Position numbers and translations under genes: made by a program. A stretch of 64,000 nt of DNA from Eledone cirrhosa (lineage: Eukaryota): positions 87,544,001 to 87,608,000 of the forward strand of contig OZ024747.1 in assembly GCA_964016885.1 (NCBI GenBank). The letters run 5' to 3'. Within the stretch, counting starts at the first letter, position 1, and every line of letters starts with the position of its first letter. The notes under the pieces are model-generated. The model searched no databases. It had not been told where the DNA came from and saw nothing but the letters and a program-made list of their open reading frames with translations. Shown here piece after piece: positions 1 to 59,554 of this stretch.

Positions 1-684
1 TAAGAAATTATTCGGATCATATTGACTTATCCAACTCATATCAGCATGGATAGCAAACAAAAAATGACAATATTAATGATGCACATACACACATGCATGC
101 ATAGCACTTACATGCATGAAACCTTGCAAAGAAATAGGCAGCCATATATATATACACACACACATTGGTATATTGCACACAAACAGATTTATACATACAA
201 TCTTACAGATATTTTCATGCAGACATATAAATATGAGAGTGAGAGAGAGAGAGAGAGACATAGGAATAGATATAATACATACAGACATACATAAGCTGAT
301 ACAAGCTGACATACCAAAATATACTGATAAAAATGGTGTGACAAAGAAAATATAATGACAGAAGGTTCTAGATGTTTGTATATGTAAAAAAGAAACGTTA
401 TATTCGATTACATTCTTATCTATGTTATCTGTGCTATCTATTTTATCTGCTGTATTTAACTTTTGAGCTCTGTCAAGCCAAGATTAAATTTCAATATATG
501 TACCACCACACTACTACAAATGACAAAGAAATTCTATTCTGCTCTAGAAATATATTCTTTATCTATTATTCTACGGATTATCTTGAAAATAGTATTCAAG
601 CAGTTTTTTTGTTATTGGCATCATGTTGTGAAGCATACTGGGAAGAAAAACAGACTGAAATATTGCAGGCAAAATATTTCTCTT

Positions 685-5700: not shown

Positions 5701-8045
5701 GCATATTAGAAATTACTTTTATCAAGAAAAAATATATTTTGAATATCTGAGATAATTAATAAAAAATTAACATGTAATAGAAATATTATTTTTAAATTTC
5801 TACCTTAGGAATTCTCATGATCTATTAAATATAAAAACTTCTAAAACTTACTTATTTTCAGTTATGTATACCTTGTCATAAGGAATGTGAAACCTGCCTT
5901 GGTGAAGGGAATTATTCCTGCAAAAAATGTCGCAACTTCCTGATGCATAAAAAGTGCACAGACATATGTCCCAAAAACTTTTATAGTGATATAGAGAAGA
6001 AAGAATGTGTTGAATGCCACAACGAATGTTTAAATGGATGTCATGGCCCATCATCATCTGACTGTGCTGCTTGCCGTAACCTAAAAATTTATTTAAGCAA
6101 CGAAACTATGGTAATTTTTTATATATATATATATAGAACACTTAATAGTATTGCTAACATGGTCAACTTTTACCTCTTCACATTGTGATTAAATGAAAAA
6201 TTTGAAAAATTTTGTGATATGGTTTGTTTATTTCATTCAAGTGCTAAGTTATTATTTCTAATATCATAGCAGTAAGTTATTGGTAACATGTGTTCATGGC
6301 TTTGTCTTCATAATTAGAAGTACTTCACTTCAATTACACCAATAAATCTACTATACTATATATCCATTGGTTGGTGTTAGGAAGGTCATCCAGCTGTATA
6401 AAAAACCTGCCAGAGACGCTTCTGTGAGAGCGAGACAAGGTCTCCCGACCATTCCCGCATCAAATGAAACAAAACCATCTAACCCATGCTAGCGTGGAAG
6501 ATTGACGTTAAACGATGATGATGATGATTAGCAGTGGTAAGAAACTCCCAGGAGAACTAGACAGCAGAAGGTCTTCAGAGAAGAAACACCCCTCAAGCAA
6601 GTGTTTCGGCCCTTAACGTCCCCAAGGAACTTTTAGTTTTCCCTGTATTATATTGTATGTCTTAACTTTATATTACTGTTTTAAAATACAGATTGCTGTT
6701 TAATGTTTTACACTAGGAAAGTTATTCAGTTATAAAATCACTTGATCCCAAAATGAAAATAAAAAGTAGCATTAATCCTATTATATATCAATATTTTTAA
6801 ATATATTTTTCTTACCAAATAAAACTATTATAAAAGATATTAATAAAATATTTTATCTTCTATTGAATGTAGTTTAACTGCACAGCTATATGTCCACTAT
6901 CTAAACCATATTCTATACGTGATGAAGAACAGAGAGGTCGTACTGTCTGTGTTGATGATACACACCCAGTGATAGTTGCCGAAAAACAGTAAGTCGGTAT
7001 TTCATCATCTATTATTAAATAATTGTTTCTACTTTTTGGCAATTACCCAGTACATTACTGGTACTTTATTTTATCGACCTCGTAAGGATGAAAGGCAAAG
7101 TTAACCTCGGCGGGATTTGAACTCAGAATGGCAAGGGCCGTAACTCTATGCGTCAAAGCATGGCGTCCGACCCTCTACCGATACTGCCAATCCACCATCT
7201 ATTATTAAATAATGTTTGTGTGTATGCTTGTTAGTTATTGAAGTTTTATAGATGCCCCAAAAGAAAAAAACACATCTGATCATTTAGATGCTAAATTCTG
7301 AATAATGAGGTGGTCACAGCTTCTAAATAAGACTAATATCCATAGTGAGGATTATTCTTATTGGCCAGTTTGGATCAAATGGTGGAAGCAATATCTCAGT
7401 GACTAGCAACTGATGCTGAACATGAGGCACCTCTCCCTTGCTTTCATTAGAAATTCCAGTGAAATTTAAAATTTCTGTTTATGGAGTAGTATTAACAATT
7501 AATGGTTTAAACTAGTAAACAGGGAGCCCTGTTGGTGGCAGCAAAATTAGAATTCAGTTTTCTTGTTAATGCATTGTGCAGTTTCTTGCAGTTTGACTCT
7601 CCTAGTGTGAGAGAGGAAGGTCATTGGCAAAACATCTGTACTACACATATTTAGACCTTTGGAATGTATGTCACAAAACTTTCCTGCTCTATGCACCAAC
7701 TAGCATTGTTGCTGATTTGCTGAAGGATCTCAAGACAGTTCAGTTTGAAATATAATCTAAACACTTACACTTAAAAAACAATCTGAACTCTGATGAAACT
7801 GTTACACAGGCATTTGAAGAACCTGTGTTCCAAAAAATACAGTGATGGCTATGAAATTCTTTTAGTTTGTGTTAGATATGATAGAGCTGGGAATATTTCT
7901 TAATGTATTTGCTGGATTCTTTACTTATTTGTCATATGAAAGTTATGATCAGTCAAAAACGTTCTAAAATTTAAATGGAACACAAGACAAAAAAAGAAGT
8001 GGAGGGGACAAATATTTTTTTATGTATTCTCTATTAACAGTGTTG

Positions 8046-8105
<60 letters not shown>

Positions 8106-11100
8106 ATATATATATATATATACCATTTATATTGTGTTGTTTACCAATGGGTAGCACTGGTGATTCCAGTTAGTAAATAATGATGCAATAAATTAAAGCA
8201 CTCAACATTATGCAATTCAACCATCTTAGATATATATAATATGGCTGGTGCAGGAACAGAGTTAGATATTTATTAAAAACAACAGAAGGCCAGACTGGAA
8301 ACTTGCTTTAAAAATTTAATTCTGTGAAAACACTATGCATATTTCAATGCCTAGTTTCATCATCCAATCATGATGCAAGACTTAAGTGATTTCATCAGGT
8401 GTTGATTGCAGAATTAGTTATAAGTATAACAGGATTACAGTGAACACAAACAGAGAATAGAGAATAGATTTGATTTGGGGATGGCTTGCTAATTCAATGT
8501 TATTGTAATGACAAATTATCCCTGAATCTTTTTAATGAATATGTATATACATATATCCACCAACATAGCTTTAAAGTTTCATGTAGAAACCTTGAATATT
8601 ACAAAGAATAAAACAATGATGTACTAGTCCTTAATAATGAAACTTCTGCTTCTAAATAGAGACTGAGACCATGAGTGGCATTCAACAGTACAATCATTTT
8701 AACACATACTAATTTGAATAATTGAAACTATAGCCATATCAAATATTTGGCTTCACTTTATCAGTATATGTGTAGTATTAAAATGTCCCTTTTTTTTATC
8801 TAAAGGAAAAAGGAAAAGAAAGCCAATATCATCATCATCAGTGCCGTCTGTGGTTCAGTATTGCTTGTTTTATGTATTGTTATCACAATCTGCTTCTTCT
8901 GCAAACGAAATCGAGAAATAGAGAATGTAACTAAATACAATGCTACAATAATGGGTTATGATGAAAATGAGGTAAATATTTTGATGTTTCACTTGACTGT
9001 AGTGAATTTAAAATTTAGTATTTACCAGCTACTGTTGTGCCAAATTCTAATTCATTGTTGTGGTTTGTGTTGTGCTGTTGATAAAGCAAAATATAACCCT
9101 AGCAGTGATTGGCTAACTTTGATTGCTAGAATAATGAGAATTCCACAATTATGTATTACTTGATAGTATTGTCCTTCATGTCATGTACATTTTCTTGAAT
9201 TTGTACATCATTGCTATGAACCTGTAGTCTATTGCTTTCCTCCCTACAATGGGCTTTTATCATGTTCTTAGATAGATAATGATAGAAATAAATCTCTTGT
9301 AGTTCTGGTATACTATTTTGATACATATCTGGTTAGATTGGTCTATCTTGTCATCAGCGAAACTTTATTCTACCTGGAGTTTTATAAATTACTTGTTACC
9401 ATAATAAATTAATTTTAATTAAATTAATTTATTTGTTACTCTATTAATTCATTACTAAAACAGATTATTTTTTACCATAATACATATATAAAATTAGATA
9501 GTTATATCTCTTAGATAATTGACTCCCTGTCTAAATTGTTATATCTTTTATGCATAATTGGTTCCTTGTTTAATTTTGTTTCTCAAACATTTCAGCCGCT
9601 CAATCCAACTGATATAAAACCTGATTTAGCTCAACTTCGATTAATTAAAGAGTCCGAACTTAGAAAAGGTAGTATAATTGGATCTGGAGCTTTTGGAACT
9701 GTTTATAAGGTGAGTTATAAGAAATTAATTACATGTTAAATAATTTTTTTTACTCATTCCCTAGTTAGTTGGAATAATTAAGGTTTCAAAACAGAATAAT
9801 TAAGGTTTCTTTCAAAACAGAGCAATATATGTACTTTTCTTTTCCAGAACAAATACTGTGATACACTTAATTTGATGACTTGGTTATTCAATTTGATGTT
9901 ACAGAAAATAAAATACTCAATATTGTTTCATTTTCTTTTGAAATTTTGTGCTATTTTGTCTCTTTTTTTCTTAAAGGGATTTTGGATTCCTGATGGCGAA
10001 AATGTAAAGATTCCTGTTGCAATCAAAGTGCTTCAAGAAGGAACATCTCCTAGCCAGAATAAGGAACTGTTAGAAGAAGCTAGAGTCATGTGTTCAGTTG
10101 ACCAACAATGCTGTATCAGGATTTTAGCTGTGTGTATGACTGCTCAGATGATGTTGATTACACCTCTCATGCCACTTGGATGTCTGCTGGATTATATCCG
10201 TAAAAACAGGAAAGCAATTGGTTCTAAAGTACTACTCAATTGGTGTACACAAATTGCTAAGGTAAGATTTTATGTTTCAATGTGATTTATTTAGTAAATA
10301 GTACATTGCTTGAGGCACCTAAAATTATTTTATTATTAAATTCTGATGGATTGGCAGTATCGGTAGAGGGTCAGACGCCATGCTTTCCAGCATAGTTACG
10401 TCCCTTTACGATCTGAGTTCAAATCCCGCCGAGGTTGACTTTGCCTTTCATCCTTACGGGGTCGATAAAATAAAGTACCAGTAATGCACTGGGTAATTGC
10501 TGGCCTTGTGCCTAAAGTAGAAACAATTATTAAATTCTGGTATACGATGAAATGCTTACCAATTATGCTTCAATAACTGTAAGTACTAAATATACAATAT
10601 TTAGTACTTTCAGTTATTGAGCTCAATAATTTGCAACATATTTAATTAATGCAATGCATAAGAACTAAAATTTATCAAAATATTCAAATTGGTTACTATT
10701 CTGAAGGTACATAGCCTAGTAGTTAGGGTGTTGAGCTCATTATCTACCATCAGGTAATAGGTTCAATCTCTGAACTGGGGGCACATTGTGTCTTTGAGCA
10801 AGGGACTTCATTTCATGTTGCAATCAACTCAGTTGAAAAGAATTAGTACCAGCAGCAGTGTTGTACTTTCTGTTGCCTCATGGAAGTGGTAAATTCAAGC
10901 CTGATGAAGGCATTTGTTCATTTAAACAGATATCATGTTATATGTTGGATAGCCAAGAAATAATTATAATTTATGCTTTCTATGTTTAAAGTTATATAAA
11001 TAATAATAATGAAAATGAACTGTTTGTTTCAGGGTATGGCTTATTTAGAGGCCAGAGCCATTGTCCACAGAGATTTAGCAGCAAGAAATGTTTTATGTAA

Positions 11101-14200: not shown

Positions 14201-17200
14201 ATTGAAGTAAGTCACTTTGTCATGTTATACCAGACATAATCTAATGTTAATTATGAATGTAAACGTGTAGATGGTGTTGATAATATGAAAAGTGTGTATC
14301 TCTTTTAATGGTTTCAGTCATTAGACAACAGTAATGCTGATGCACCACCTTTAAAGAATTTAGTCGATCTTAGAACTTTTTTTAAGTTGTGTACTTATTT
14401 TACTGATCCTTTTTATATAACCCGTGAATGTCTTCATGTGTTTCTATTTTTTAAAGGCAATATTTGGTCATAATTTTTTTTTAATATTTACTTCTGCATC
14501 CATGGATTGATATTTCTCAGTTTCAGAAGATCCTGCTTTAGGGTGAAAGCAGAAACTGTTTGCTTAAAATTTTAATCTGTACTAATAATAAATATTTGCT
14601 CTATGGGTTTATATATACTTATATGTATATACCTCTTACTGAGTCCTCTCCTGATTTTCATCCATCATTGTATTTATTATTACTACTATATATATATATA
14701 AACGTTTGTATATGTATAATAAAGCCAAAACAACGCAGGTATGGACATAGAATAAAGAATGCAAATGCAAAAGATATTGTTGACAATTTGTCTTTTACCT
14801 TAGATTTATTTAAATGTCCTAAATTTTCGAGATAATATCTCTTCTTCAGAGGGAATAAAGTTGTCAAACAATATCTTTTGCATTTGCATTCTTTATTCTA
14901 TGTCCATACCTGCATTGTTTTGGCTTTATTATACATATACAAACGTTTATACCTCATTACACAATGCTTCAAGTGAACTATAACCTCCTCCTATATATAT
15001 ATATATAAATCTCACAAATCACAACACTATATTTTTTTTGTCACATCACCAGTCTGAAGAGCAAGTCAATAATGGAGTCAGATCCGTAACTCCTATGGGT
15101 GACCAATTCTCTGTGAAATGCACATAAGAGGTCGATACACAATAAAAAATCTAATACATGTAAACAAAACTGCTTGTGCATAGAGTGCTTGTTTTGGTAC
15201 CACCACCAGTAATTCACTGAATCACCTACACCATATATATAGTAGTGAAAGAGTGAAGAATAACATGGTTGGCTGTACAAAAAGGGTTTTATTTACAGTA
15301 TTAACAATTGTTTCATTGATCAGGTGAGTCTAAAGGCCGCTAATCACTCGAAGTTGCACCACTCGACCTTAAATACAGTGTGTCTCTGATGATTTGATCA
15401 GAGACACACTGTATTTAAGGTCGAGTGATTAGCTGCCTTTAGACTCACCTGATCAATGAAACAATTGTTAATACTGTAAATAAAACCCTTTTTGTACAGC
15501 CGACCATGTTATTCTTCACTCTTTCACTACTATATATAATATATATATATACCATTAGATGATGAAACTGATGACATATATATAGGATGGGTACAGTTTC
15601 TATCTATCAAAATTCACTCACATTAGTCAAACTCATGGCTATTGCTCAAGATACTCTGCAGTGAGAGTGAACTTGAAATCATAGTTGTGAAACCAACTCC
15701 TTAACGACAAAACCATGCCTACGCCTATATTAATTAGTAAAAGATATAAAAATTCTTTTTTTTTTATCCATTCAGAAATAAAAATTTAAAATAATCCTTA
15801 ACTTTCAAGTATATGAGGAGGGGTTGGAAACTTAAAGCTTAAGATAACAGTGTCATCATAGCATTGGGTGGTCTATTAAGTTGTATGTTATTGTTGTAAA
15901 GGATACACCGGCTTTTCATTTCAATTCAAAGATATTAACAGCTTTAGCTGGTCCCCAATCTGATGCTAGAATGTCACGAGATCTTTCACTATAATTAATT
16001 TTTATTTATATATTCATGAATTTATTTATTTATTCTATGAAAAATGTATGATATTTGTGTTATATTCACACCAAACTTCCTCCATAATAATTAAAATAAC
16101 TGTAAATTTAAAAGATATTATCTCCAAAGGAGGTATTTAATATTGTTGCTCTTGGTGTTTATTATTATTAATGTTATGTGTTAAGTTGGGAGTATCAGTA
16201 GGGTATCGGACAACATGCTTTGTGGCATAGAGTTACGGCTCTTTACGTTCTGGGTTCAAATCCTGCTGGGGTTAACTTTGCCTTTTATCCCTACAGTGTT
16301 GATAAATAAAGTACCAGTAATGCACTGAGGTTGATTTAATCGACTTACTCCCAAAATTGTTGTCCGTGTACCTAAATTTGAACCCATCATTATTGTTACT
16401 GGTACTTTATTCTATTGACCCCCGTAATGATGAAAGGCAAAGTGGGATTTGAACTCAGAACATAAGGGTTGCTTAGAGTTACAGCCTTTTACGTTCTGTG
16501 TTCAAATCCCTAAGAGGTTAGCTTTGCCTTTCATCCTTACAGGGTCAATAAATAAAGTAGCAGTAATGTACTGAGGTCCATTTAATTGACTTTCTTCTCT
16601 CCAAAAATTGCTGGCCTTGTGCCTAAATCAGAAACCATTATTATTATTGTTGTTATTGTTGTTGTATGATATTAGTTTTACATAGTGTTACTATGGTAAC
16701 AAGAAGCAGCAACATGGCCAGTTTCTTTTGTTTAAATGAGATTATCTTTGATGAGAATCAATAAGAATGAATAGCTATGATAATAACATAATTAAATCAA
16801 TATGAAGCATTGTTTCAATGATTCTTCATATTGACTTAATTATTTATCTGTTAATAGAATAAAAGAAATTTCGGAAGAATTCCCAAAAGATACTTTGTAA
16901 TATTAGACAAATGAATAAAGAAATTATTCAGTAGAGACATTTCAAAAGATATAAATGACATATGTTTGTTGTTGTTGTTACAGTTACAGTTCATACCTAC
17001 GTAGTTTTCTCAGTTGTTTTAATGCTAGGAACCCCAAATTCATCATAAAAAGATCCCCCCATAAAACCGGATGCCTGTCTGTTGCAGGAGTTAACCCCCA
17101 ACTGTTGTTACTGTTATTTCTTTTCAACTGAATGGACTGGAGCAACATGAAATGAAATGTGCTCCAGAACACAACATATTGCCCTGGCCAGGAATCAATC

Positions 17201-20200: not shown

Positions 20201-22009
20201 TCTGGTGGACAAGACTATCGGATTCCAAACTTGTAAAAATTACATTCATAAAAACCAAGCTAATCATGAACTAAATGTTTATATTAGAGCTAAGACACTC
20301 CTAAAATCCATACCTCAGACATCATCCATATATCCCAACCCTTAAAATATGTATATATATGTGTGTGTTTAGAAAAGAGTGAGTGGAATTTGAAACAAGC
20401 TGTATGACTAAATGGAATTCTGAATGAAAATGTTTTAAAAGCCAGCCCTTCCAAGCCCTAGTAACAGTTACCACTGATAAATATATTGTAGGTGATAAAG
20501 TTTAAAATTCTATACAATATTTATAAAATGTTACCTTACTGAATAATGGCATATGATAAATATCTTTCTTTTATTGTAGATGATATCAAGGAACTTGATC
20601 CAAACCACCTGATGGAAATTGAACCCAAACTCATCCCGACTGCACCATTCCATTCCTCTCGTCAGTTACCTGTTGATGAAGATGATTATCTTCAACCAAA
20701 GTCTGTAAACCCAGCAGCTTACATTGATATTAATGGCAGTATAGGTATGTGGCCATTACATTTGGGTGTGTGTGTCTTTGTGTGTTTTAAATGATGTTTA
20801 TAAATAGGAACAGCAGTTGAGAGAAGATAGTAGAAGCAGGTAGATATGTAGTGAGGTGAGTTAGAGAGAGAGAAAAACTGAAAGGGGAGATTGGGGAGAG
20901 ATAGTAGTAAAAGTAAATTAGAATAACACAATTAATAAAAGGAAGATGGTTGGGACAATCACTCATATGTCTTTTTGACATAATAAATTTTCATTGTGCA
21001 TTGATACATGCATCTGGCACTACTTGTTAATGCATGCTGCAGTTTTTCACTTAATGAAATCTTTTGATCCTGCCCACTGAGATATAATGTTCTCCCATTC
21101 AGTATGAATCACTGTTGACTTAACACTAATTCCTTCACTGATGTTACATGTCCATCACAATAGCACCCCATCATGGGGTATATATTTTTCTTTCTATGTC
21201 ATTGGTGGTTTACTCCCCTAGTGATTAAGGTTTTGTCTCACACCTACCCTTAGGTGTGTCTGGCATAGTTGAACTTTCTAGAAGTTTGACATCCTATCAG
21301 TATAGTTTTCCAGATCAAGAAACAAACAAGCCACTCTACCTCAAGTAGAGGGTGGCCATTGACTTTCAAAAGTTCCTCTGCCCTTTGATTTATTTTGTTT
21401 TTCATCACACAGAGTGTCCAAAATTTATGATGATGATGATGATGATACATAATAAACAGTTTTGTATTGCAGAAACAGATAGTTTCAAGCTGTTTAATAT
21501 CAATGCAGGTCACAATATCATACTTTTACTTCTACCTACTCTGTTATAAAGCGGATGTTTCACTCTCTTCATGATAATGTGATTGGTGCTTCGAAAAAGC
21601 TTTAGTTATAATAACCTCTTTATCTATAATTAGTTTAATGAACAAATATGTATATAACTACCAAACTGAAATGTTAAATGAATATTAACTAAAAAATGAA
21701 AACTTCATTAATTGTATTTTCTTTTTTTTTTATCCTTTTACAGATAATTACAAGAACAGTTATGAACCAACAAATGATGAATTAATGAAAGACATTCTTG
21801 GGGCTACTACTATGGCTTCTGTGGAAAACCCTGAATATTTTGAACAGAACAATAGAACTGCTCCTCTTCCACCTGGTGCTGGTGATAGTTTCCGGTGGAA
21901 AGATGGCAATGGTGTTACTTACTACAATGATATTTCCAAGCTTGATAAAGCACATCGAGAATTACAGCCCTTAATAATAAGTGATGTCAACTCAGAAACA
22001 AGAGTGTGA
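1846..22009 (+). CDS. EGFR: Epidermal growth factor receptor (EGFR/ErbB) gene, 5'-partial; 17 coding exons in window
   Basis: Exons 1846-2045, 3834-3961, 4415-4583, 5862-6110, 6873-6988, 8806-8971, 9596-9709, 9977-10261, 11033-11096, 11552-11643, 12625-12700, 13654-13800, 14109-14206, 18482-18658, 19774-19993, 20580-20744, 21744-22009, all AG/GT bounded with matching phases. Encodes furin-like Cys repeats ([10 protein letters not shown]), a TM helix, kinase motifs [70 protein letters not shown], and a tail with ENPEYF ending ETRV*. N-terminal L domains lie upstream of the window. Confidence 0.97.
2821..3240 (-). mobile_element. Penelope-like element reverse transcriptase fragment (degenerate)
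   Basis: LLDKALEF...[22 protein letters not shown]...GLYCDNGL (decayed YRDDG)...GLKIT...[10 protein letters not shown], matching the MGS(F/Y)DGAE/YRDDG type of PLE RT; truncated by a (TG)n tract. Confidence 0.8.
3834..3961 (+). CDS. EGFR: EGFR exon, Cys-rich
   Basis: tttcag| [22 protein letters not shown]...[10 protein letters not shown] |gtacag. Confidence 0.92.
4415..4583 (+). CDS. EGFR: EGFR exon, Cys-rich
   Basis: caag| [16 protein letters not shown]...ECPDGFH...GKI |gtaag. Confidence 0.92.
4937..5355. mobile_element. Non-autonomous hAT (Charlie-like) MITE containing a minisatellite
   Basis: TIRs CAGGCAATGTCAAAC / GTTTGACATGCCTG; perfect 8-bp TSD ATATAGGA at 4929-4936 and 5356-5363. 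Confidence 0.85.
4964..5221 (+). repeat. 31-bp tandem minisatellite, 8 full units plus a partial
   Basis: Unit GAGG(G/T)CCACATGGGTCACATATGTGTTGTCT starting at 4964, 4995, 5026 ... 5212. Confidence 0.95.
5862..6110 (+). CDS. EGFR: EGFR exon, Cys-rich
   Basis: ttcag| [12 protein letters not shown]...[25 protein letters not shown]...ETM |gtaat. Confidence 0.93.
6873..6988 (+). CDS. EGFR: EGFR exon, membrane-proximal ectodomain
   Basis: gtag| [13 protein letters not shown]...VAEK |gtaag. Confidence 0.9.
7024..7200 (-). mobile_element. tRNA-derived SINE copy
   Basis: Near-identical reverse complement of 13223-13410. Confidence 0.87.
8806..8971 (+). CDS. EGFR: EGFR exon, transmembrane and juxtamembrane
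   Basis: taaag| [37 protein letters not shown]...DENE |gtaaa. Confidence 0.9.
9596..9709 (+). CDS. EGFR: EGFR exon, juxtamembrane and P-loop
   Basis: [38 protein letters not shown]. Confidence 0.95.
9977..10261 (+). CDS. EGFR: EGFR exon, kinase N-lobe and hinge
   Basis: [19 protein letters not shown]...[16 protein letters not shown]...[10 protein letters not shown]. Confidence 0.96.
11033..11096 (+). CDS. EGFR: EGFR exon, catalytic loop
   Basis: [21 protein letters not shown]. Confidence 0.95.
11552..11643 (+). CDS. EGFR: EGFR exon, activation loop
   Basis: [30 protein letters not shown]. Confidence 0.95.
11900..12497 (+). mobile_element. Degenerate RTE-group LINE 3' fragment
   Basis: [15 protein letters not shown]; ends ccaacccatg...ggaaaagcagacg(tga)n. 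Confidence 0.82.
12625..12700 (+). CDS. EGFR: EGFR exon, kinase
   Basis: [25 protein letters not shown]. Confidence 0.95.
13223..13410 (+). mobile_element. tRNA-derived SINE (representative of at least 10 copies)
   Basis: A-box TGGCAGTAGCGG, B-box GAGTTCAAATCC, conserved core actttgcctttcatccttacggggtcgataaaataaagtaccag; other copies ~7024-7200(-), 10345-10525(+), 16186-16640, 30905-31047(-), 37847-38025(-), 42977-43137(-), 43550-43740(-), 45429-45541(-), 57763-57975(-). Confidence 0.88.
13654..13800 (+). CDS. EGFR: EGFR exon, kinase C-lobe
   Basis: [15 protein letters not shown]...[23 protein letters not shown]. Confidence 0.95.
14109..14206 (+). CDS. EGFR: EGFR exon, end of kinase
   Basis: [33 protein letters not shown]. 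Confidence 0.95.
14697..14951. repeat. Fold-back inverted repeat (~90-bp arms) enclosing a hammerhead motif
   Basis: 14697-14787 is a near-perfect reverse complement of 14860-14951; (TA)n on the left. Confidence 0.9.
14818..14852 (-). ncRNA. Minimal type I hammerhead ribozyme motif
   Basis: Minus strand reads CCT CTGAAGA A GAGAT-ATT-ATCTC GAAA ATT T AGG: stem I CCT/AGG, hairpin stem II, palindromic stem III AATT. Confidence 0.6.
15234..15537. repeat. ~300-bp near-perfect palindrome with hammerhead-like motifs
   Basis: Arms 15234-15390 and 15397-15537, 6-nt loop, one ~15-nt bulge in the left arm; TA-repeat flanks. Confidence 0.92.
18482..18658 (+). CDS. EGFR: EGFR exon, C-terminal tail
   Basis: [11 protein letters not shown]...[11 protein letters not shown]...DDSK. 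Confidence 0.93.
18930..19578 (+). mobile_element. Degenerate mariner (DD34D-type) remnant
   Basis: Frameshifted [13 protein letters not shown] ... [16 protein letters not shown]; 3' TIR-like end ...ctttgtatccaacctaata. Confidence 0.85.
19774..19993 (+). CDS. EGFR: EGFR exon, C-terminal tail
   Basis: [11 protein letters not shown]...[17 protein letters not shown] (RYSxDP is conserved in EGFR tails). Confidence 0.9.
20580..20744 (+). CDS. EGFR: EGFR exon, C-terminal tail
   Basis: DIKELDP...[13 protein letters not shown]...YIDINGSI. Confidence 0.9.
21744..22009 (+). CDS. EGFR: EGFR terminal coding exon
   Basis: NYKNSYEP...SVENPEYF...YYND...NSETRV*. Confidence 0.92.
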
Positions 22010-22839
22010 TTGTGTAAGACTAACGACTGTGGGTATTAGCAGTCGCAACAGTAACAAAAAGATTTTGTTCATGCTGACATTATCCTCCCCTTTTTTAATG
22101 TCACTGATACAAAGCCCTGTGCCAAGCAAATTGGAGTCAAATTTGAAACCAGACAACACCATCAATAGTTGCCCAATTATTAAATATTAATGGCATAATT
22201 TGATAAACTATCTTCCTTACTCTGCCCCATATGACTCCTATAAAAAAAAAGGGGGGAGGGAAAAGAGCAGTAGGGACATGTTTGTATATTTCATTGATCT
22301 TTTGTAGTAAAAGTACAAAAAATATGTAAAAAAAAAAAAAGAGAAAGTATGTATGTGTGTGTGTATGTATATATGTGTATGAGTGTGTCTGCTTGTATAT
22401 AAATTAAAAGACTGAATGGAAATGAAACTTCAAACAGCTGAGACATATACCATACCATTAAACAGTGATTTGGCCTTTTATAACTCAATAACAGTTCTTT
22501 ATGCCTAAATTAGAAACCAGGGATTTGCACCAGCAATCATATTAAAATAATTTTTCTACAATTGTGAAAATCATGAGTATAAATAATCAATAACCAATGC
22601 ATATTGCAAACTAATGTTCACCCACAAGAGGCCCACCAGTCACAGTTACTGTATTTAAGAATTATCTTATAAAGAGTACTGAAAGAAGGCCTAGAATGTG
22701 TGGAAACTCTCTAAAGGAATTTCTAACCAGAGGTTGCCAATTTCAGATAATCCCTATTTATGTATATATATATATACATTGCAAGCAGGGAAAAGCGGAC
22801 GTAAAATGATGATGATGATGATGATATATATATATATAT

Positions 22840-23008
22840 ATAGGAACGAGTAGGACGCCAACGGCTGAGCTCAAGCCGTTTCGACGGCTAATTCTGGACT
22901 GAATTAGCCGTCGGGGTCCTACTCGTTCCTATTACCCACTCTACTACCCTAAGTATTGAGTACTTTGGTGCGTTATGGTCCACCTGGTTCCTTACCACAT
23001 TTCTTCCG

Positions 23009-23010
<2 letters not shown>
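22840..23010. repeat. Three-way-junction (Y-shaped) fold-back element between (TA)n tracts
   Basis: Outer stem ATAGGAACGAGTAGGAC/GTCCTACTCGTTCCTAT; inner hairpins AACGGCT/AGCCGTT and CGACGGCTAATTC/GAATTAGCCGTCG. Confidence 0.9.
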
Positions 23011-23068
<58 letters not shown>

Positions 23069-23266: not shown

Positions 23267-23369
23267 TCTTGTGGCACATAATCAAAATATAAATCCACAA
23301 TAAATAGAAACTATTAAAGTAGCAGTTGATCTCTTTTATATGCAAAATCTGTCTGCCAACTGAACAATA

Positions 23370-23620
23370 TATATTTATATTCATACATGGAACAAAAGCA
23401 CTACCTAAGTTTTCAAGGCCCTATTTCGCCCATATCACCAGATTGTAACCTAGTCTTTAGGTGCTTGAATGAGTTTGAAGATACCATTAATGGTATCTTC
23501 AAATTTGCACCTGAAGACTAGGTCACAAATTTAATCCCTCTTACAATCTGGGTAGATGGTCAAATCAGGACCTTGAAACCTTAGGTAATACGTTTGTTCT
23601 GTATATGAACATAAATAAAT
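23370..23620. repeat. Diverged palindrome made of two inverted hammerhead-bearing arms
   Basis: Central perfect palindrome tttgaagataccattaatggtatcttcaaa 23474-23503; + arm GCAC CTGAAGA...GAAA CCTTAGG TA; - arm AGCAC CTAAAGA...GAAA ACTTAGG TA GTGCT. Confidence 0.8.
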
Positions 23621-23939
23621 AATATATCAGCTTGCATACCTGATTAAACACTGCTTTTCTTTTTCACATCCACCGATATTTTACTACATATACATACATA
23701 TATATATATACACTCTTTCAATATGATACTAAAATACATTTCATCCACCTACTAATACCTGTTTACTGAAGGCCATACCACACCCACCAATATCCATATA
23801 TGGAATCCTCTTCAAGTAAAACTTTTTCACTGTTATAGTCCTGTCCTTTACATTTATTAAACATTTTGCCAAATCAATGTCACATTTTTTTGTCTTAAAT
23901 ACACAAACAAACTGATAATTAGTTGTATGGGAAAACCAC

Positions 23940-24630
23940 AAGTGCATTTGACAAGCTCCGTCATCATCTTTAGAATGTGAGGGGCATTAAACTGGACACC
24001 AAAATACAGGTTTATAAAGCTGTTGTACTGACTACACTCTTATATGGATCAGAATCTTGGACTCCATATAAGTCACACATCAACCAACTAGACATCTTTC
24101 ATAAAGATTGTCTTTATGCAATCTGTGGGTACACACTCAAAGAGAAAATATCTAATGCTGACCTCTTCACTAAGTGCAAGATTGGAGGCATTGAAACCTT
24201 TCTTATGAAATCGCAATTATGCTGGGCTGGTCATGTCATCAGAATGAGTGACAAAAGAATATCAAAAGTCCTCGTGTACAGCCAGATCAATGGTGGATGG
24301 CCAGACAAGCTGAAAAGTAATCTTTCAGGAACCAATATATTTTATGAGACATTTGAGGAAGTGGCCTTGCATTGGAAGAACTGGAGTTCTATGTGTCATA
24401 ATGGGATCAGGAACTTTGTGTCCAGTTGTATCCATTAGCAGAAGGAGAAAAGCATTTCAAACATACCAGTAGCATTATCCACTAAACTTCACCCTTGCAC
24501 GATTTGTGGACTTGCTTGCAAATCCTTGGCAGGTCTAAAATGTCATGACCGATATAAACATCCAAACTGAATGAACTGAATAGGTTGTTCAGATCCCCAT
24601 ACATCAATGTCAACAGGAGAGACCATGATT
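23940..24630 (+). mobile_element. RTE (BovB-like) LINE 3' fragment
   Basis: RGIKLDTKIQVYKAVVLTTLLYGSESWT...QLCWAGHVIRMSD, then a C2H2-like CTICGLACKSLAGLKCH. Confidence 0.85.
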
Positions 24631-24904
24631 ATATATATATTTATATATATATATATAACAGCATACAATGTTTGCAAATTCATATAGATAGAAAACATAC
24701 ATAGGTGTGTGTGTGTGTATTTGATAAAATGGATTATAAGTACGTACTTAAAGCATTACTTTATTCATCAGTGGCCATAAAAAGCTGTTTACCACATATA
24801 CACATCAGACTCTATACACTTCTAATATAAGAGTTAATTGAAGACGTTTTTTCTTTCTTTTTGTATAATAAAACTAAAAAAACACATACATATATACATA
24901 CATA

Positions 24905-25144
24905 CTCTCAGGTCCCAAATAATAGGGATGGTTGGGAAATAAGTAATTGTATAGTGTACGTTCGTAAATATGGGATTTCTTGTAATGTACTTTTTTTGTC
25001 ATATAATGTTTTTAATGTAAAATATAATAATTATTAGATTCTCCAGCTGCTGTATGAATATGAATCACTTACAATAAAATTTCACTGGAGATAGATTAGC
25101 AAAATTTAATAAGCAAGGGCAGGTCGATTATTCAAGACTTGAGA

Positions 25145-25145: not shown

Positions 25146-25180
<35 letters not shown>

Positions 25181-25927
25181 CAAGCAGGGAAAAGCAGACG
25201 TAAAATGATGATGATGATGATGATATATAGCAGATTAATTATGATTAGTTTTCCCTCTTAGGCAGTGAGAGTGAATGTGCAAATCTGTGTATAAAATAGA
25301 TGTTTTTATTTATTGGTATATATACTGACACGTATGTATGTATGTGTATATATATATATGTGTGTGTGTATTATGTATGTATCTATTTTCATTACTTTTA
25401 TATTAAAATAATGAGCAAATTTTGTATCTTTTGCCAAAACATCTTATTTAAAATCTTTTTTTAAATATGAAATTCAATATTCTGAGTGCAGCAGAATATT
25501 TTAAACTTTTTATAAAATTCCTTTTCCACCTTCATTCTTCCTTTACTTCTCATTCTACGGTGATTATTGCCATGTAAGGTGTCTCTGAAAGGTTGAATTC
25601 TTAAAGACACAGTACCAGTTTTAGTGGAATCTCTTTTGGGTATTGGAGTGGAACTAATTCCATGTTTCCAACATCATCATGCCTAATAGGAAGACTTGGA
25701 AAAAAATTATTTATTGAATGAAGTTCTAATTTCTTGATCAATTCATCAATATATCTTAAACTCCAAAATTGTTTGATATTATACCCGAGAAACTTATTGT
25801 ATGCATGAGTGTGCATCTATATATGTGTGTATATATGTTTATATGTATATGTTTGTGTGTGTATGTGTATATATGTGTGTGTGTATATATATGAATGTGT
25901 ATATATATATATATATATATGTATATA

Positions 25928-26037: not shown

Positions 26038-27318
26038 CAGGGTGCGGACGATTTGTTCGCAAAATTACTGTTTAGGAAAAAATAACACAGTAGTTTTATA
26101 TTTTAAGATATATTTATCAAACTTGGGTCAGTTTGTCTTTATGACTTGTTCTTTCGATCTCACTCAATAAACCCGCCATTGGCTTTGATGACGGACTCAA
26201 GGTGGCCTCGAAACCGGCTACAGGCCTTCGTCGCTGTCCCCCGATTTAGGCCCCTAAAGGCACTTGTGATCCTGGCCTTCAGATCGTCTTTCATATTGCA
26301 GCTAGATCTGTTGGTGTCTCGTTCCACTGCACCTCACACAAAGAAGTCGAGGGGGTTGCAGTCAGGCGAGCTGGGAGGCCAGATGTCAGGTGAAGTGTGG
26401 TCGACGAAGTTCTCTGACAGCCAGGCTTGGGTCTTTTGGCTTGTATGGCAGGGCACTGAGTCTTGCTGCAATATGTACGGCCTACCTGCAGCTACCTGGT
26501 CGATCCAGGGCTTTACTACCTTGCTCAGAATGCGGATGTAGCCATCGGTGTTCAGCTTGAGGCCCTCAGGGAAGAAGTGAAGTGGCATGACGTCACCTTG
26601 ACTTCTGACGACACCTAAGACCAATGTTGTCGCTGGAAACTTTGTCTGCATGACTCTGGGCACGTCTTTGGATGAGACAGTGAGCCATCTGTTGTTCTGG
26701 GAATTGATCTTCTGGTCTTGGCAGAAGTTTTTCTCGTCGGAGAAAAACCACAGCATGTCTGGCTCCAGTGGGTGCTTCAACTTGTTGATCAGCTTCTTTG
26801 CATTCTTCAGTCGCTTTTCTTGCATCGCCTTTGACAGAAATTGTCCTTTCCTCATCTTGTATGAAACGTAGCGAATGTCTTCATGTACCACCAGCCTAAT
26901 GAGCTTTCCATCCACGCCTTTCTCCCTTGCAATGGCACGCATTGACTTGCTAGGTTCATTGTTGATGAACTCGGGCGTTCTGAAGGCATCAGATCGTCGA
27001 TCATGTGTTTTCCTCTTTGATGTTGCTTCGTAGTCGTATCCTGAATCTTCCAATTCCTTTCTGACCTTTTCCACCATTCTCCTGCTGACGCTGAGAAAGT
27101 CTGAAATTTCCTTATTTGTCCTCCCGGTGCGGATTCCAAGAAGTCAGTGTCTCTTCCACACATTTGGAGGTTCAAAATTATTCATAATCAATTATTCTGA
27201 AAATAAATAATGGAAATATAGTCACTATTTTTATGAAGACAAGAGTGACAACGGAAGTAAAAAATATTTGCATAAAATTAACAGTTGAAAATTGCGAACA
27301 AATATCATCCACACCCTG
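26038..27318 (-). mobile_element. Tc1/mariner-superfamily DD37D (maT) transposon, near full length, inactivated
   Basis: TIRs CAGGGTGCGGACGATTTGTTCGCAA / TTGCGAACAAATATCATCCACACCCTG with TA TSDs; transposase ORF 27077-26334 with WFFSDEK, QQD and SPDCNPLD (37 residues between the 2nd and 3rd D); premature TGA at the conserved Trp position; N-terminal region disrupted. Confidence 0.93.
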
Positions 27319-37500: not shown

Positions 37501-40500
37501 TAGATGCAGAACTTCGTCTTCTGGGAGATAGAGCAGTAGCACCAAATGGGCTTCCATAAGGAATGCATGACTGTAGCATCCAGACCACATCTGCAGTTGT
37601 TCTCCAGGGTTAGGTTTCCATTGTTGGTGACTGTGAAGCCCAGCAAGATGTAGGAGCTGACAAACTCCATGTCGTTGGGGCCAATATGGAGCAGGGGAGG
37701 ATCGGGACCATTATGATATGGGTTCTTTGATATCCAAATACTTGGTGTAAATAACTGATTTAGGTGACTAATAACTGAAATTAATTTGTGCCACTCTGAA
37801 GAAGGTATTTTCTGTTTCTACAATTTGCTTTAAGTTTTTTCAATAATTGTTTCTACTATTGGCACAAGGCCAGCAATTACCCAGTACATTACTGGTACTT
37901 TATTTTATCGACCCCATATGGATGAAAGGCAAAGTTAACCTCGGCGGGATTTGAACTCAGAATGGCAAGGGCCGTAACTCTATGCGTCAAAGCATGGCAT
38001 CCGACCCTCTACCGATACTGCCAATTATGAAAGCAAGTTGATTGTATACAGCACTTAAACGAGTTCATTTCACAGTTTGTAAGCAATTAAAAACTGTTTT
38101 TAATGAAAGTAGATTGATTTTCTTTTAATACTTTTGAATGTATATGTTCTGCTTATTTCCTAAATGTGTCACTAAACTAATCCATGCTTTAACCAAACTC
38201 TTCTCTTAACTCCTATTTTGCTTGATATAAACATTGAGCAACCGCTTCTTTCTGAGGCTGGCAAATGCACTCTATAAGTCTCTCTCTACTCTCCTTTGAC
38301 ACTTGATTGTATAGCTCTACATTTGATATATATATATATACATCTCGTTGTTGTCGTTGTCATTGTCTAACGTCCATCTTCCACACTACCATGGGTTAGA
38401 CGCTTTTGTTCCATTTGATGCGGGGATGGCCGGGAGACCATGTATCGCTCGCATGGAAGCGCCTCTGACAGGTTTTCTTTTACAGCTGGATGCCCTTCCT
38501 AACACCAACCACATTTACAGTGTGGACTGGGAGCCTTTTCACCATGTCGCCTACACAACCACCTTACAGTGTTGACTGTTGTGTCATTGACACAGTGGAC
38601 AGAATGGAGAGGGAGGATGGGGGTTGTATATTGGGTTAAGAGGTACCTACTGACTGTAGGTTTGTATGCAATGGTAGTCAGGTCTTCTGTACAACTGCAT
38701 GGTGCCAAAGGTTTCGATCCAGTGTCATTGTCTTAGAGAGGTGTAGGTGGGCATGGTCAGTTTTTATCACCTCGTCCCAGGTTTTTCTTGGTCTACCCAC
38801 TCCGCAGCTTTCATCAATTTTCATTGCCCTGCACTATTTTATACAGCTGTCATCCTTCATACACATCACATGTCCATACCAACGCAATCTCCTCTTCAGA
38901 ACACAACATTTGATACCTCTTATGCTTAGTCTCCCTCTTAGTTCATTTATGCTTCGCCTTTCACGCATATTACTATTACACATCCATTGGAATAGCAAGC
39001 TTCATTTCTTTCTAATCTACATATGTCTTCAGCACACAATGCCCAAGTCTCACTACCATGGAATATTGCCGTTCGTATGCATGCATCATACAATCTGCTT
39101 TTCATTTTTAGAGAAAAACCCCTTGTGGCCAACAGCAGTATTAGCTCTCTGAACTTTTTCCATCCCGTTCTAACTCTGGCTACTACACTTTCAGAGCACC
39201 CTCCTCCACTGCTGATTTTGTCCCCCAGGTAACGGAAGGTGTCTACTATTTATATAGAACCATCTGGGCAGTTGAAGAAGATATCATCCAGTGGGTCTTT
39301 GATATTTACTGCACCTGAGTATCGGCCACATATAAAATCTACATTCTTAGATAGCTTACCTCTGATCCCACTACATCTTTTATGTACCCATAGTTTGCAT
39401 TAAAAATAAGCTTAAAAAGAATTTATTATATTAAATAAACAAAAAATAAAACATGAGTGAGAGTAGGAAGTAAATTTAGTGAGAAATTCAAGGTACAGGT
39501 AGGAGTCCATCAGGGTTCAATTCTTAGCTCATCACTGATCCCCATAGTTCTCCAGGCCATAACAGAGGAATTTTCGTATGCTTTCAACATTTTATTTATT
39601 TGATTGATTATTTGGTTATGTTTCTTATATAGTATAAATATATATCATTAATGTTTCGTTTGTGAATCTTTCATTTCTATAATATTATAGTCTTTCATTT
39701 ATTCTGAATATATATTTATGGATTATGTATATATATATATTTTTTTTTATCTATAATTCCACAGGCAATGGAGGTTGAGAGTACATCTGTGTCCAACTTT
39801 TTCCTGGATCTAAGTACGGTGTCCATCAATAATACAAACACAAGCCAGCCTGTTCGAAATGAGGAGCTTGTCTGGATCGAAATCGCTGTGTTGGGTACAT
39901 TTTTTACTTTAGCAATCATCAATAATCTCTGTGTTCTGTTTGTGCTTTTATGCCGAAGTAAAACGATTCGCCGTATGCAGATGTTTATATTACACTTAAG
40001 TATTGCAGACCTCACTGTTGCCTTCTTCAACATTTTGCCACAGTTTATATGGGACCTCACCTTTCGGTTTATGGGAGGTGATGCCATGTGTCGTTTTGTC
40101 AAATATGCTCAGATGTTTTCACTTTATCTCTCTACATATATCTTAATCATGACAGCTATTGACAGATATCAAGCTATTTGTTATCCACTCTCCCATCAAA
40201 CCTGGACACCATACATGGTACACTGTAAGATATTTACAGCTTATGCAATTGCTACAATTTTTAGCATCCCACAAGCAATCTTGTTTCAGCTGCAAGAAGT
40301 GAAAGAAGGAAGTGGCATTTATGACTGTTGGGTTCATTTTGAACCTGCATGGCTTGTTGAAGCCTACACTTGGTATGTCTTTTGTGCTCTTTACCTGATC
40401 CCTATAATCATACTGATTTTTACTTATGGTTCTATTTGCTATACAATATGGACAAAGCATCATCAGGCAAAAGAAAAAAAACAGAAAAGAAACTTTCATT

Positions 40501-43500
40501 ATTCAAAGAGTCGAAAAAAGGAAGTATTCTTGAGAACACATTCAGTGCGTGGTTTCTCCAAAGCAAAACTCAATTCTGTGAAGCTTACATTTGCTGTGAT
40601 AGTCACTTATGTAATATGTTGGACACCATTTTTTCTTTTTCATATCTGGTGGTTGTTTGATGAAACAGTAATAGGACGTAAGAAACCTTTTTTATCTTCC
40701 ATTTATTTTGACTTGTCTTAGTCTTCTATTTTAATTTCATTTACATATTGGGTTATTTCTAAGGAAATAAATCAATCTTAGTACTTGACTAGTACTTTAT
40801 TATATTGACTCTCAAAAAATTAACCCTTTAGAATTTAAACTGGCCCTATCCGGCCATAATTCTCTTACCTGTTTCTGTTCAAACCAGCCGTAACTGGCCA
40901 CTCATACTTATGATAAGGTATTGTTCTCAAAATAAATAACATCAAAATCTCATAGATTCGATATTATGTAAGGTAAAGCCATTACTGTCAAAAAACAATT
41001 GTAAATATAGAGTAATGTAAAGGCTCAATAAAGAAGTTTGCCTCCTTTCTTCAGAATAATGGCTACCTCTTCACAATGCTGGTTATCATCTCTTCCTGAG
41101 TACAACATTGATTCTCCTGTGCTGGTTTTTAACCTTCCTAATCTTGTCTGTCTGCTTTCATTTATATTAAGAATATCTAAGTCATAGCATCTCATATCTG
41201 ATGTAACCTGAACTAGTTTCTCTTGTGTCATACATTGTTCTTACATTCCAGAATCCTAATTTGGTCTTGATCTTGGTTTTGGTGTCCAGAATTCCCATCT
41301 TCCTGTCAGTGGCTTCTTGACGGCTTTCATCACTGTCATTCATATCTTGGGATGTCTCCGGAAGCCCGTCACATTCAGTAGTGTCAGTTGAAACTTCTGT
41401 TGCTGTTTCCATAACAAAAGATTTTTTATGGGATAGAGTTGTTAGCCCTATGCCCAACCCGGAGAACCAGAGTCCATCGTAGTCTGGCTTCTACCCTTTG
41501 ACCTGTCCGACATGGTTGGAACTGCGACTTAGCTCTCAGGATCACAAAAATACACAAGCCTCCATACATCGACAAGGGGATAAATGATGTGAGGGGGAAT
41601 GTTATAACCAGAGACGTTTTTCAACAGTTACTGGACTTGGAAAAATAGACTAGAGCTGTAGCTTTTAATAAATTGTGATATTTGCAATTAAATTGAACAA
41701 AATAATTTGATTCTCAGCAATTGCTTCTTTAATTGATAATAGTTTCTAATTTAGGCTCAAGGCCACCTTTGGTGGCAGGGGAAAGTCAATTTAATCAACT
41801 CAATGCTTGATCAGTACTTTATTTTATTGATTCAGGAAGGACGAAAGGGAAAAAAATTGACTTTGGTGGGATTTGAACTCAGAATGTAAAGAGCTGGAAC
41901 AAATGTCACAACCTACCATCCTTTCACAAATTTATAACAACCACCAGAAATAATATTTATCCAATTCTTTCAATGTTAATTTTGCTTTCTTCATTCTATA
42001 AGCATATTTCTTTAATCTTTAGATGAAGGTGTGGTAATAGTTCTACTACTGGCATTTCTAAATAGCTGCACCAATCCATGGATTTACCTGATCTTCAATA
42101 GAAATTATCTTTACAATTTCTTTTCTTGCAAAAAATTATGCCACAACAAAAATGAAGCTGCTGCTAATAACACAGAGATGGAACAGTTATCTCTGACCAA
42201 TTCCAATAGTTCAAGAAGACCCTCTGGCAACACTGTCAGGGACAATAACTCTCCATTGCATCGGACATCAGATCAATTTACTTATACAAATAAAACAACG
42301 TATGTATATTTTTTAATCATTAGAACAGATTTTATTTTTGGCTGTATAGTCAGGGGAAGAAACACAGAGAATTTAGCTACTATTTCTAACCAATAAAATT
42401 ACATTAGTGAGGGATCCTCATTGGTTTAGTCAATATTGATTAGAAAGGGTGTTAGCCATGCCATTTATCAAGGAGCCTGGTCATAATGACCTCTCCAATG
42501 TCACTGCCATGATAAAAGGTATCCAATACACCCTGTGAGTGGTAATGTGGCAAATTAATATTAATTGTAATGATTTTAAACTTTGGCAGAAGAACACAAA
42601 TTCTGCAATAGAGATTTAGTTGATTTAATCCTTTTTGATACCAAACTACCTGAAACCACCCCTGATTGCATGATACAAAACTGTTTATATTTATCTAAAA
42701 GCTTCCATCATAATTTTATCTAAAAAGAGAATGTTAGGCTATATTCTAAACACAAGCTTAATAATTAAAAAATTACAAGCAATGTTTTTCATTAGAAATT
42801 GGTAATGAAAGGGTTAATTCCCCCTACTAGCTGACTGTTACTTATTTTATCAAGCTTGGAATACAAGTGTCAAAGTCTACAATGGCAGAATTGAATCTAA
42901 ATGATGAAAAATAGGATAAATACTGAGGAATATAATTTAACGCCTATTATTTCTGCAACTCCGCTCTTATAATAATTGTTTCTACTTTTGGCACAAGGCC
43001 AGCAATTACTCAGTGCATTACTGGTACTTTATTTTATCGACCTCGTAAGGATGAAAGGCAAAGTTAACCTCGGCAGGATTTGAACTCAGAATGAAAAGGG
43101 CCGTAACTCTATGCATCAAAGCATGGCGTCCGACCCTCAATAATAATGATTAATTGCAGGTCTACAAAGTATGAGGGAGGGTATAAACAATACTTTTTTT
43201 TATCAATCCTAAGGCCAATTTAACATGGATGATTTTAAATTCAGAATGTAAAGGGACGTAACTAAATATAGCATGGTATTTTGTCTGTCACCTTACCAAA
43301 TCTGCCATTTACCACACTAATAATATTAATGCAGCAAGCATTTTAAGGCTATTTTCCTCTGCTAAAGTATGGATTAGCTTTGAGAGCGGCATGAAAGATG
43401 TTACGCTCATTATATGGTGCTTTTCAAAGGAATGATTTATGGCTGGTTACTTTTCTGGGCCCATTAGTCACCTCTTACAACATGCAGAGATATAGCATAC

Positions 43501-57700: not shown

Positions 57701-59554
57701 CAAAATATATATATGAACCTGATAACTGATGCAAAATATATATATGAGCCTGACAGACATAATTGTTTCTACATTTGGCATAAAGTCAGTAATTTGGGGG
57801 AGGGGAAAGTTGATTAAATGGACCTTAGTGCATTACTGATACTTTATTTTATCGACTCCATAAAGATGAAAAGCAAAGCAAACCTCAGCAGGTTTGAACT
57901 CAGATGTAAAGGGCCATAACTCTATGCTGCAAAGCATGGTGTCTGATGCTCTATCGATACTACCAATCCATTGCCCTTGCTTAACTTCGGTGATAGATGA
58001 GAACCAGTGTTTTCAGCATGATATGGTCGTAAACACGCAGACATAATGCGTAAACTGACTGACATAATGAAGGAATGCAGTAGGTGGAGAGAAGCTTGGC
58101 TAGAAAAGACCCGTTCAACCCATGCAAGCATGGAAAAGCAAACGTAAAATGATGATGGACGGAATATTTATTATTGCCCTTCAGGCTATAACAGAGGAGT
58201 TTAAGACCGGTTGCCCATGGGAACTCCTATACGCAGATGACCTAACACTCATAGCTGAATCAATGGCCGAGCTAGAGAAGAAATTCCAAACATGGAAGCA
58301 CGGCCTAGAATCAAAAAGCCTTAAAATTAACCTGGCTAAGACTAAAGTTCTAGTTTGTAAGAAAGAAAATAAGGCGGCGGTCCCTTCCGGGAAGTGGCCA
58401 TGCTCAGTGTGTAGGAAAGGCGTAGGTAGAAACTCCATTTTGTGTCAGAAATGCAAAGTATGGGTGCATAAAAGATGTAGTGGGATCACAGGTAAGCTAA
58501 CTAAGAACATAGATTTCACATGTGGCCAGTGCTCTGGTGCAATAAGTAGCAGCAAGTGCCCACAAAATACTAGCTCTTTCAACTGCGCAGAGGGTTCTAT
58601 AGAAATAGTGGACAGCTTCCGTTACCTGGGTGACAAAATCAGCAGTGGGGGAGGGTGCTCTGAAAGTACAGTAGCTAGAGTCAGAACTGGATGGAAAAAG
58701 TTCAGAGAGCTTATACCACTATTAGCCGCTAAAGGGTTCTCCCTAAAAATGAAAGGCAGGTTGTACGATGCCTGCATACGAACAGCAATGTTGCATGGCA
58801 GTGAGACCTGGGCATTGTGTGCAGAGGATATACGCAGACTAGAGAGAAACGAAGCTTGCATGCTCCGCTGGATGTGTAATAGTAATATATGTGAACGGCA
58901 AAGCATAAACGAACTAAGGAAAAAATTAGAAAAAAGAGGGATCAGATGTTGTTTACTCGAGAGAAGACTACGTTGGTATGGTCACGTGATGCGCATGAAG
59001 GACGATAGCTGTATAACAACGTGCAGGGCAATAAAGATAGACGGTAGCCACGGAATAGGCAGACCCAGAAAAACCTGGGACGAGCTGATAAATTCCGACC
59101 TCACACACTTACACCTCACCAAGACAATGTCACTGGACCGAGACCTTTGGCGGTACTCAGTAATAGAGAAGACCCGCCTTACCTAAATACAAAGCAAAAC
59201 CTACTACATTCAGTAGGCATCTCTAACAAAATACACCCCCGTCCCACCACCCCCACCCCATCCACACCGCCCCTTTCAATGTAAAGTTATGTTGGTGCCA
59301 CAACATCCAGGCCGAAACAAATGAGATCGTGTAGGTGTCACGTAAAAAAAAAACACAGTTCACGCTGTAATGTGGCCGTGTAGGCAACACGGTAAAAACC
59401 TCCCAGCCCCACACTGTAAATGTGGTTGGTGTTAGGAAGGGCATCCAGCTGTAGAAAACCCGCCAGATAGTCCTATGCGAGCAAGATAATCACTCTTGCC
59501 TCAAGTGGGAAAACCCCCGTCCAAACCCATGCAAGCGTGGAACACGGACGTTAA

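Follow-up and report, generated by a model that had tools for sequence, protein, structure and literature searches.

The closest described relatives of the locus reported here are Penelope-like elements (PLEs) of the Hydra clade with C-terminal endonuclease, such as Hydra-1_Obim and Penelope-13_HM (Craig et al., 2021, PMC8557442). As set out in section 11 of that work, the clade is recognised by a set of diagnostic motifs and by its targeting of (TA)n. The parent family of our locus shares with these elements the RWR/DKT motifs, the CxCx5C linker, the CxxC/CxH signature, the (TA)n targets and a type I hammerhead in the pseudo-LTR (pLTR), as well as the combination of an inverted 5'-truncated copy, a sense copy and a one-sided tail, which the same source describes as a PLE insertion layout.

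Concerning the ribozymes, the PLE hammerheads presented by Cervera and de la Pena (2014, PMC4209133), including that of Schistosoma Cercyon, resemble ours in being of type I, with a 5-bp stem I, a long stem II and a palindromic loop III, and in that truncated copies give rise to two motifs, one on each strand. The U3-A8 pair of Cercyon is a known natural covariant of the core (PMC4209133; PMC3088659) that is also found in one subfamily of the present family. A circular or multimeric RNA template is proposed in the same article (PMC4209133).

A further parallel is provided by PAc, a Poseidon element of Anolis (Frangieh et al., 2024, PMC11167929), in which two internal RT starts bracket the tail and both target strands are cut and extended in vitro, as would be the case here. 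In PAc the hammerhead is dispensable for insertion, and single 3-8 mismatches abolished its activity. PAc differs from our family in belonging to the Penelope/Poseidon clade and in having an ORF that starts inside the hammerhead, and short arms with a constant 5' terminus within loop II appear not to have been described for it (PMC11167929). How PLEs make their inverted arms and what the hammerhead is for are treated as an open question in these works (PMC8557442; PMC11167929).

A branched fold-back inserted in (TA)n

We analysed a window of 64,000 nucleotides of Eledone cirrhosa DNA (contig OZ024747.1, positions 87,544,001 to 87,608,000), in which a first-pass annotation had noticed, at 22840-22932, a near-perfect three-way junction in hammerhead order, flanked by (TA)n and lying about 830 nt past the stop codon of an EGFR-family gene. 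The minus-strand sequence on which this was based is exact at 22931-22841, (TA)n is present on both sides, and the insertion begins 832 nt after the stop codon. The structure is also real: 22830-22945 folds at -63 kcal/mol, with a z-score of -8.92 that was equalled by none of 200 shuffles. The unit is, however, a 168-bp insertion at 22841-23008, of which the Y-shaped stretch represents the left part (Table 1). It consists of two head-to-head 5'-truncated arms plus the 77-nt tail of a PLE, and in full-length copies such as L187 this tail runs on into the ORF leader.

Table 1. Positions in the window of the insertion, its flanks, the neighbouring coding exon and a relic of the related older family
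Feature	Position	Strand	Basis or content
Last coding exon of EGFR-family gene	21742-22009	+	ORF list; tyrosine-kinase exon upstream; stop codon 22007-22009
(TA)n target, left flank	22825-22840		Read from sequence
Inverted tail-less arm	22841-22900	-	63/66 identical to 3' end of full-length copy L187
Sense arm	22901-22931	+	Stem II 3' strand fused to stem I 3' strand; comparison with intact sisters
77-nt tail, on one arm only	22932-23008	+	104/107 identical to L187
(TA)n target, right flank	23009-23063		Read from sequence
Decayed older-family PLE copy	48140-48327	+	Box TTGATGA (family CTGATGA), stem II 5' strand and loop, homologous tail, then (TA)n

We consider it highly probable (about 0.9) that 22841-23008 is the stump of a Hydra-clade PLE in (TA)n, made of head-to-head truncated arms with the 3' half of a hammerhead, turned into a Y by a 23-nt deletion and most likely without ribozyme activity. 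The inverted arm contains, in order, the last 6 nt of loop II, the stem II 3' strand, GAAAC, stem III, the GUU triplet, the stem I 3' strand and about 14 nt downstream of the latter; placed by eye on the parent, its end falls 18 nt upstream of GAAAC. In the sense arm, 23 nt comprising GAAAC, stem III and GUC are missing at 22912/22913, and this loss is bounded by two 7-nt AGCCGTC direct repeats. The minus strand of the window copy retains GAAA, stem III, an NUH triplet and stem I, all of which the plus strand lacks through the 23-nt deletion. Reading of the strand bears out that there is no CUGANGA (CTGANGA) box between stems I and II, and an Rfam scan of the window returned no hammerhead match.

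The hammerhead derivation that had been proposed is correct, since what the arms hold is the 3' half of the ribozyme motif in the parent. Stems I and II of the Y, however, differ from the stems of that ribozyme: each is a 3' strand paired with its own inverted copy. A nested inverted duplication, which the first-pass annotation kept as a fallback, is thus also a true description, alongside hammerhead ancestry. The GUU triplet and a G.G mismatch in stem I are due to two substitutions private to the window copy, at 22857 and 22860, since its sisters have GUC and a perfect stem I; the triplet first read is present, but the family has GUC. Finally, the 'barely decayed' state reflects the youth of the copy, whose arms share 95-97% identity with the full-length L187.

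The parent element

Long sisters continue on their upstream side into unique sequence, through a 3' UTR of 1.2-1.3 kb and then into an ORF; on contig C1, five of the first 30 exact tail-side copies are of this kind. L187 (G000:C4:330719012-330722740) is a full-length parent, with a 3.57-kb unit between hammerheads and a single 740-aa ORF that carries RWR, DKT and RT motifs and a C-terminal endonuclease with CxxC (CNLC) and CxH (CKH). The CxCx5C linker is mutated in L187 and intact in L174, L182, L186 and others. RT and GIY-YIG-type assignments for this ORF come from motifs read by eye; Pfam gave no match on the parent ORF, and the best of its 1,125 homologues carries a weak GIY-YIG match. Its N-terminus resembles, by eye, that of Hydra-1_Obim as given in a passage of the supplement.

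The parent agrees with the Hydra clade in its RWK-like/DKT motifs, CxCx5C, CxxC/CxH and absence of CCHH, and the pLTR or partial tandem, the inverted truncated copy and the one-sided tail are seen in L153, L187, L189 and the window copy. Judged by motifs and (TA)n targeting, the family very probably belongs to this clade. It is nonetheless separate from Hydra-1_Obim, whose hammerhead sequence in File S2 is different (PMC8557442). Moreover, Hydra elements are described as typically shorter than 3 kb and as having tails of 30-40 nt, whereas the present unit reaches 3.57 kb with its long 3' UTR and has a tail of 77 nt; and the canonical CUGANGA is present in every Hydra motif that File S2 lists, whereas ours combine a 34-nt loop II with a CUGAGAA or UUGAGAA core (PMC8557442). 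A literature search of partial coverage, including portions of PMC2377424 and bioRxiv 10.64898/2026.07.22.740005, found no account of this PLE family, which is apparently undescribed so far. The window stump itself has a known PLE architecture.

ORFs from other Hydra-like PLE families adjoin copies of the present one, at 7616-9079 (+) in L187 and 2-679 (-) in L189, and PLE insertions cluster in shared (TA)n sites.

The hammerhead core in the young and older families

The parent pLTR hammerhead is of type I and consists of a 5-bp stem I, the box, stem II with a 34-nt loop, GAAAC, stem III with a palindromic loop, and GUC, the arm sequence corresponding to its 3' half. The first-pass annotation had proposed looking in sister copies for CTGATGA. 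Short sisters lack any box and long sisters carry a variant one, for which we obtained 1,376 exact matches; by hand count, the first 100 comprise 66 CUGAGAA (C3.A8 mismatch), 29 UUGAGAA (U3-A8 pair), five others and no canonical box, which is found instead in an older family. Exact searches for a canonical box directly before the stem II of this family gave 0, 1 and 10 matches, none of this family, and these matches are older-family relics or unrelated. In Rfam, no hammerhead appeared among 150 of 169 matches listed for five parent or relative loci, and folding the parent motif without constraints gives a structure that exceeds the hammerhead in stability by 1.5-4.1 kcal/mol.

With mean pairwise mismatches of 6.3% within C-box copies, 6.9% within U-box copies and 9.0% between them (20 copies each), the two appear to be distinct subfamilies of similar age, and the idea that the U3-A8 subfamily is the younger is unsupported by these divergences. 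Because 3-8 mismatches abolish activity in PAc, the C3.A8 core of the majority is presumed, by analogy, to be weak or dead, and probably is. Compared with the hammerheads in PMC4209133, ours have a stem III of 5-6 bp, two thirds of the box-bearing copies have the C3.A8 mismatch, and the window copy has no box.

The window also contains a copy of the older family. The sequence at 48173-48195, which had been singled out as a related locus with a core-like box, is present as quoted and belongs to a relic of this family, whose box is canonical (Table 1). The 3' half of the hammerhead is deleted in this relic, and part of the 3' UTR reaches upstream to about 47915. The young-family hammerhead aligns with the older-family motif, in which a canonical CTGANGA occurs in 21 of 29 copies and G8 in 28 of 29.

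Arm ends stop short of the box

When arm ends were mapped on the parent, 44 of 51 lay at most 22 nt upstream of GAAAC and none at 23-61 nt. A second sample gave 56 of 63 within the limit and one at 23-55 nt, and in the older family 18 of 19 arms end at most 20 nt upstream of GAAAC. The distance from GAAAC upstream to the box is about 55-62 nt in the parent, and the box is absent from the stump because the arms end in loop II before reaching it. The limit corresponds to a pyrimidine-pyrimidine-AGTC stretch common to the young and older families, on the A of which the inverted arm of the window copy ends, and which we take to resemble an initiator element. Loop centres often hold A-runs facing T-runs, untemplated A/T included. 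Our literature search, again of partial coverage, found no report of a fixed arm end inside loop II.

Three simple explanations for this limit were tried and rejected. A transcription start at the arm-end point predicted ORF-leader copies ending there, and none was seen among 17 scored of 30 loci; these 17 extend 42 to 1,400 nt past GAAAC, the other 13 being unscored by the script. Had a circle linked the arm-end point with the cleavage site, joins between the two would be expected, and none occurred in 290 loci. Twin hairpins behind the two arm ends both fold weakly (z -0.29 and -0.89).

Sister copies and the origin of the Y

A search of the same genome with 22835-23015 (181 nt) gave 1,377 candidates, and the 40 scored are 93-100% identical end to end. 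All 30 top sisters fetched are flanked by (TA)n, and their outer ends are sharp and common to copies. The majority of sisters form plain palindromes, each arm of which has GAAAC-stem III-GUC. On contig C1, the first 30 copies that match the tail arm exactly comprise 21 short box-less fold-backs, four short copies that lack a partner arm and five that reach the box.

Exact patterns of equal length occur in the genome as 13,006 intact arms and 189 arms with the Y deletion (1.4%), the deleted arm being on the tail side in 52 and on the tail-less side in 48 of the first 100 of these 189 (hand count). In 30 Y-junction copies that were fetched, the loop centres differ and five lie within long, box-bearing arms; the 23-nt deletion therefore recurs independently. 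The Y form is a recurrent deletion in a palindrome, most simply by slippage between the AGCCGTC repeats. We rejected the Y junction as a site of ribozyme cleavage, as it is ambiguous over the 7-nt repeat and equal in both arms.

The EGFR gene context

The GT..AG intron 20742>21742 is spliced out in run X4, which has cover of similar depth over 21742-22250, 22389-22749, 23274-24620 and 24730-24971; the run is unlabelled and was taken as RNA from splicing alone. Based on this cover, the insertion is likely located inside an EGFR 3' UTR of about 3 kb that extends to at least 24971, in line with the location first suggested, but no contig bridges the element. Contig cover around the insertion skips repeats, and empty-site alleles are thus outside its view. 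The hammerhead order is antisense to EGFR, and the element as read on the EGFR strand lacks GAAAC. In EGFR mRNA the insertion would form a branched duplex of about 40 bp without a GAAAC core, which could serve ADAR as no more than a passive substrate.

The same likely 3' UTR contains, at 23388-23600, a further and older fold-back that belongs to another family, with arms long enough for a hammerhead box (CTGAAGA ... GAAAC) and a decayed stem I. Run X4 has clustered A>G differences in these arms (23396, 23407, 23408 and 23416) that are absent from run X1; X4 and X1 are different samples, and the cluster is suggestive of A-to-I editing. At 20606-20742 the spliced X4 contig differs at 17 positions, and an X1 contig has the same letters at about half depth, which would reflect an allele, a paralogue or alignment overhang at the exon start.

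A possible mechanism and its alternatives

The parent element, the arrangement of arms and tail, the missing box, the deletion with its frequency and the clustering of arm ends are direct observations; a process that could account for them, in which the joining of two cDNAs is inferred by analogy from PAc biochemistry, would be the following. The RT-endonuclease of the element would cut (TA)n and prime two cDNAs, whose internal starts would be separated by 77 nt, giving one arm with the tail and the other without. Synthesis of both cDNAs would break off in loop II, short of the box and about 18-21 nt upstream of GAAAC, and the two would be fused head to head, in many cases with untemplated A/T. 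A subsequent loss of 23 nt between the AGCCGTC repeats in one arm would lead to the Y.

Other readings have to be weighed against this one. A ribozyme, disarmed as the first-pass annotation had put it and under selection, or a structural RNA element of the EGFR 3' UTR would be in keeping with the very stable fold and with the probable transcription of the insertion, for which the RNA-like cover of run X4 speaks. However, the hammerhead order is opposite to the EGFR strand, whose copy has no GAAAC; the identity to the parent (95-97%) is that of thousands of neutral sisters; the two private changes damage stem I and GUC; and the Y is a recurring deletion, a 1.4% variant. There was no disarming at the junction, as copying into the arms never extended to the box, and we regard selection as extremely improbable. 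A self-propagating non-autonomous element, either MITE- or retrozyme-like or with a Y-hairpin or parvovirus-like terminus, would be a fixed short unit, and short copies do prevail (25/30), with sharp outer ends common to them; yet loop centres vary by copy and include untemplated A/T runs, lengths form a continuum up to the RT-encoding parent, and the deletion is equal in either arm. The tandem non-coding monomers, each with a complete hammerhead, that mark non-LTR retrozymes were not found, the copies being truncated arms of an ORF-bearing element. Nor did we find a Rep/HUH-encoding parent with a fixed terminal hairpin, as in parvoviruses or Helitrons: the parent encodes RT and the hairpin centre varies per copy, so that the Y-hairpin terminus suggested at first finds no support as one of viral or Helitron type. 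We regard a self-propagating short unit as very unlikely.

The way in which the palindrome arose is less constrained, and here the alternatives leave the identity of the PLE stump unchanged. It may have formed by fold-back self-priming of a single cDNA, given that stem II and loop II are partly self-complementary, or by an endonuclease cut in the AT-rich loop II, given the preference of the PAc endonuclease for AT-rich sites in its own pLTR (PMC11167929). Self-priming from a loop II hairpin would nevertheless give arms of at least 23-30 nt, where 0/51 ends fall at 23-61 and 1/63 at 23-55, and the A-runs facing T-runs in L118, L119 and L094 fit two tailed cDNA ends; we consider these routes rather unlikely. 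For two joined cDNAs, the simplest version would place the RNA 5' end at the limit, against which the 17 scored ORF-leader copies speak. Either another template, circular or multimeric RNA, underlies the long copies, or the limit reflects an early stall or an endonuclease cut. A tentative possibility is that two templates are used, linear RNA with its 5' end in loop II, and so without ribozyme, giving the thousands of box-less fold-backs, and circular or multimeric RNA giving long partial-tandem copies that run past this stop, in a family of more than 13,000 arms, mostly C3.A8, with one subfamily restoring U3-A8.

Other features of the window

Further long inverted repeats occur at 15234-15538 and 14697-14951, both flanked by (TA)n, and at 51804-52051 and 16396-16566. 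All four are probably fold-backs of other families, and 15234-15538 has GAAAC in both arms and CTGATGA near its centre. The same short (ATG)n-ended 3' fragment of a repeat lies beside (TA)n at 22781-22825 and 25180-25225, 2.4 kb apart; the pair matches over 76 bp at 94.7%, and the fragment also ends LINE-like copies in L120 and L153. Downstream of EGFR, 39708-40721 and 42016-42396 form a two-exon rhodopsin-family GPCR (7tm_1) that resembles a receptor of the vasopressin/oxytocin type. A mariner-like transposase relic and RTE-like LINE fragments (names given by eye) lie at 26334-27143 (-), 58104-59186 (+) and 38615-39401.

Significance

The locus itself matters little, being one of thousands of young PLE stumps; its probable effect is an additional double-stranded stretch in the EGFR 3' UTR. 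It is also a caution that mirror-image PLE ends can mimic hammerheads without a core. The family, on the other hand, bears on the question of how PLEs make inverted arms and use their hammerhead: two families share a conserved point within the ribozyme at which their arms stop, and the younger of them spread with a core that, by analogy with PAc, is expected to be weak or dead. Should the two-template reading be true, PLE template choice and the dispensability of the hammerhead would become testable in one young family.
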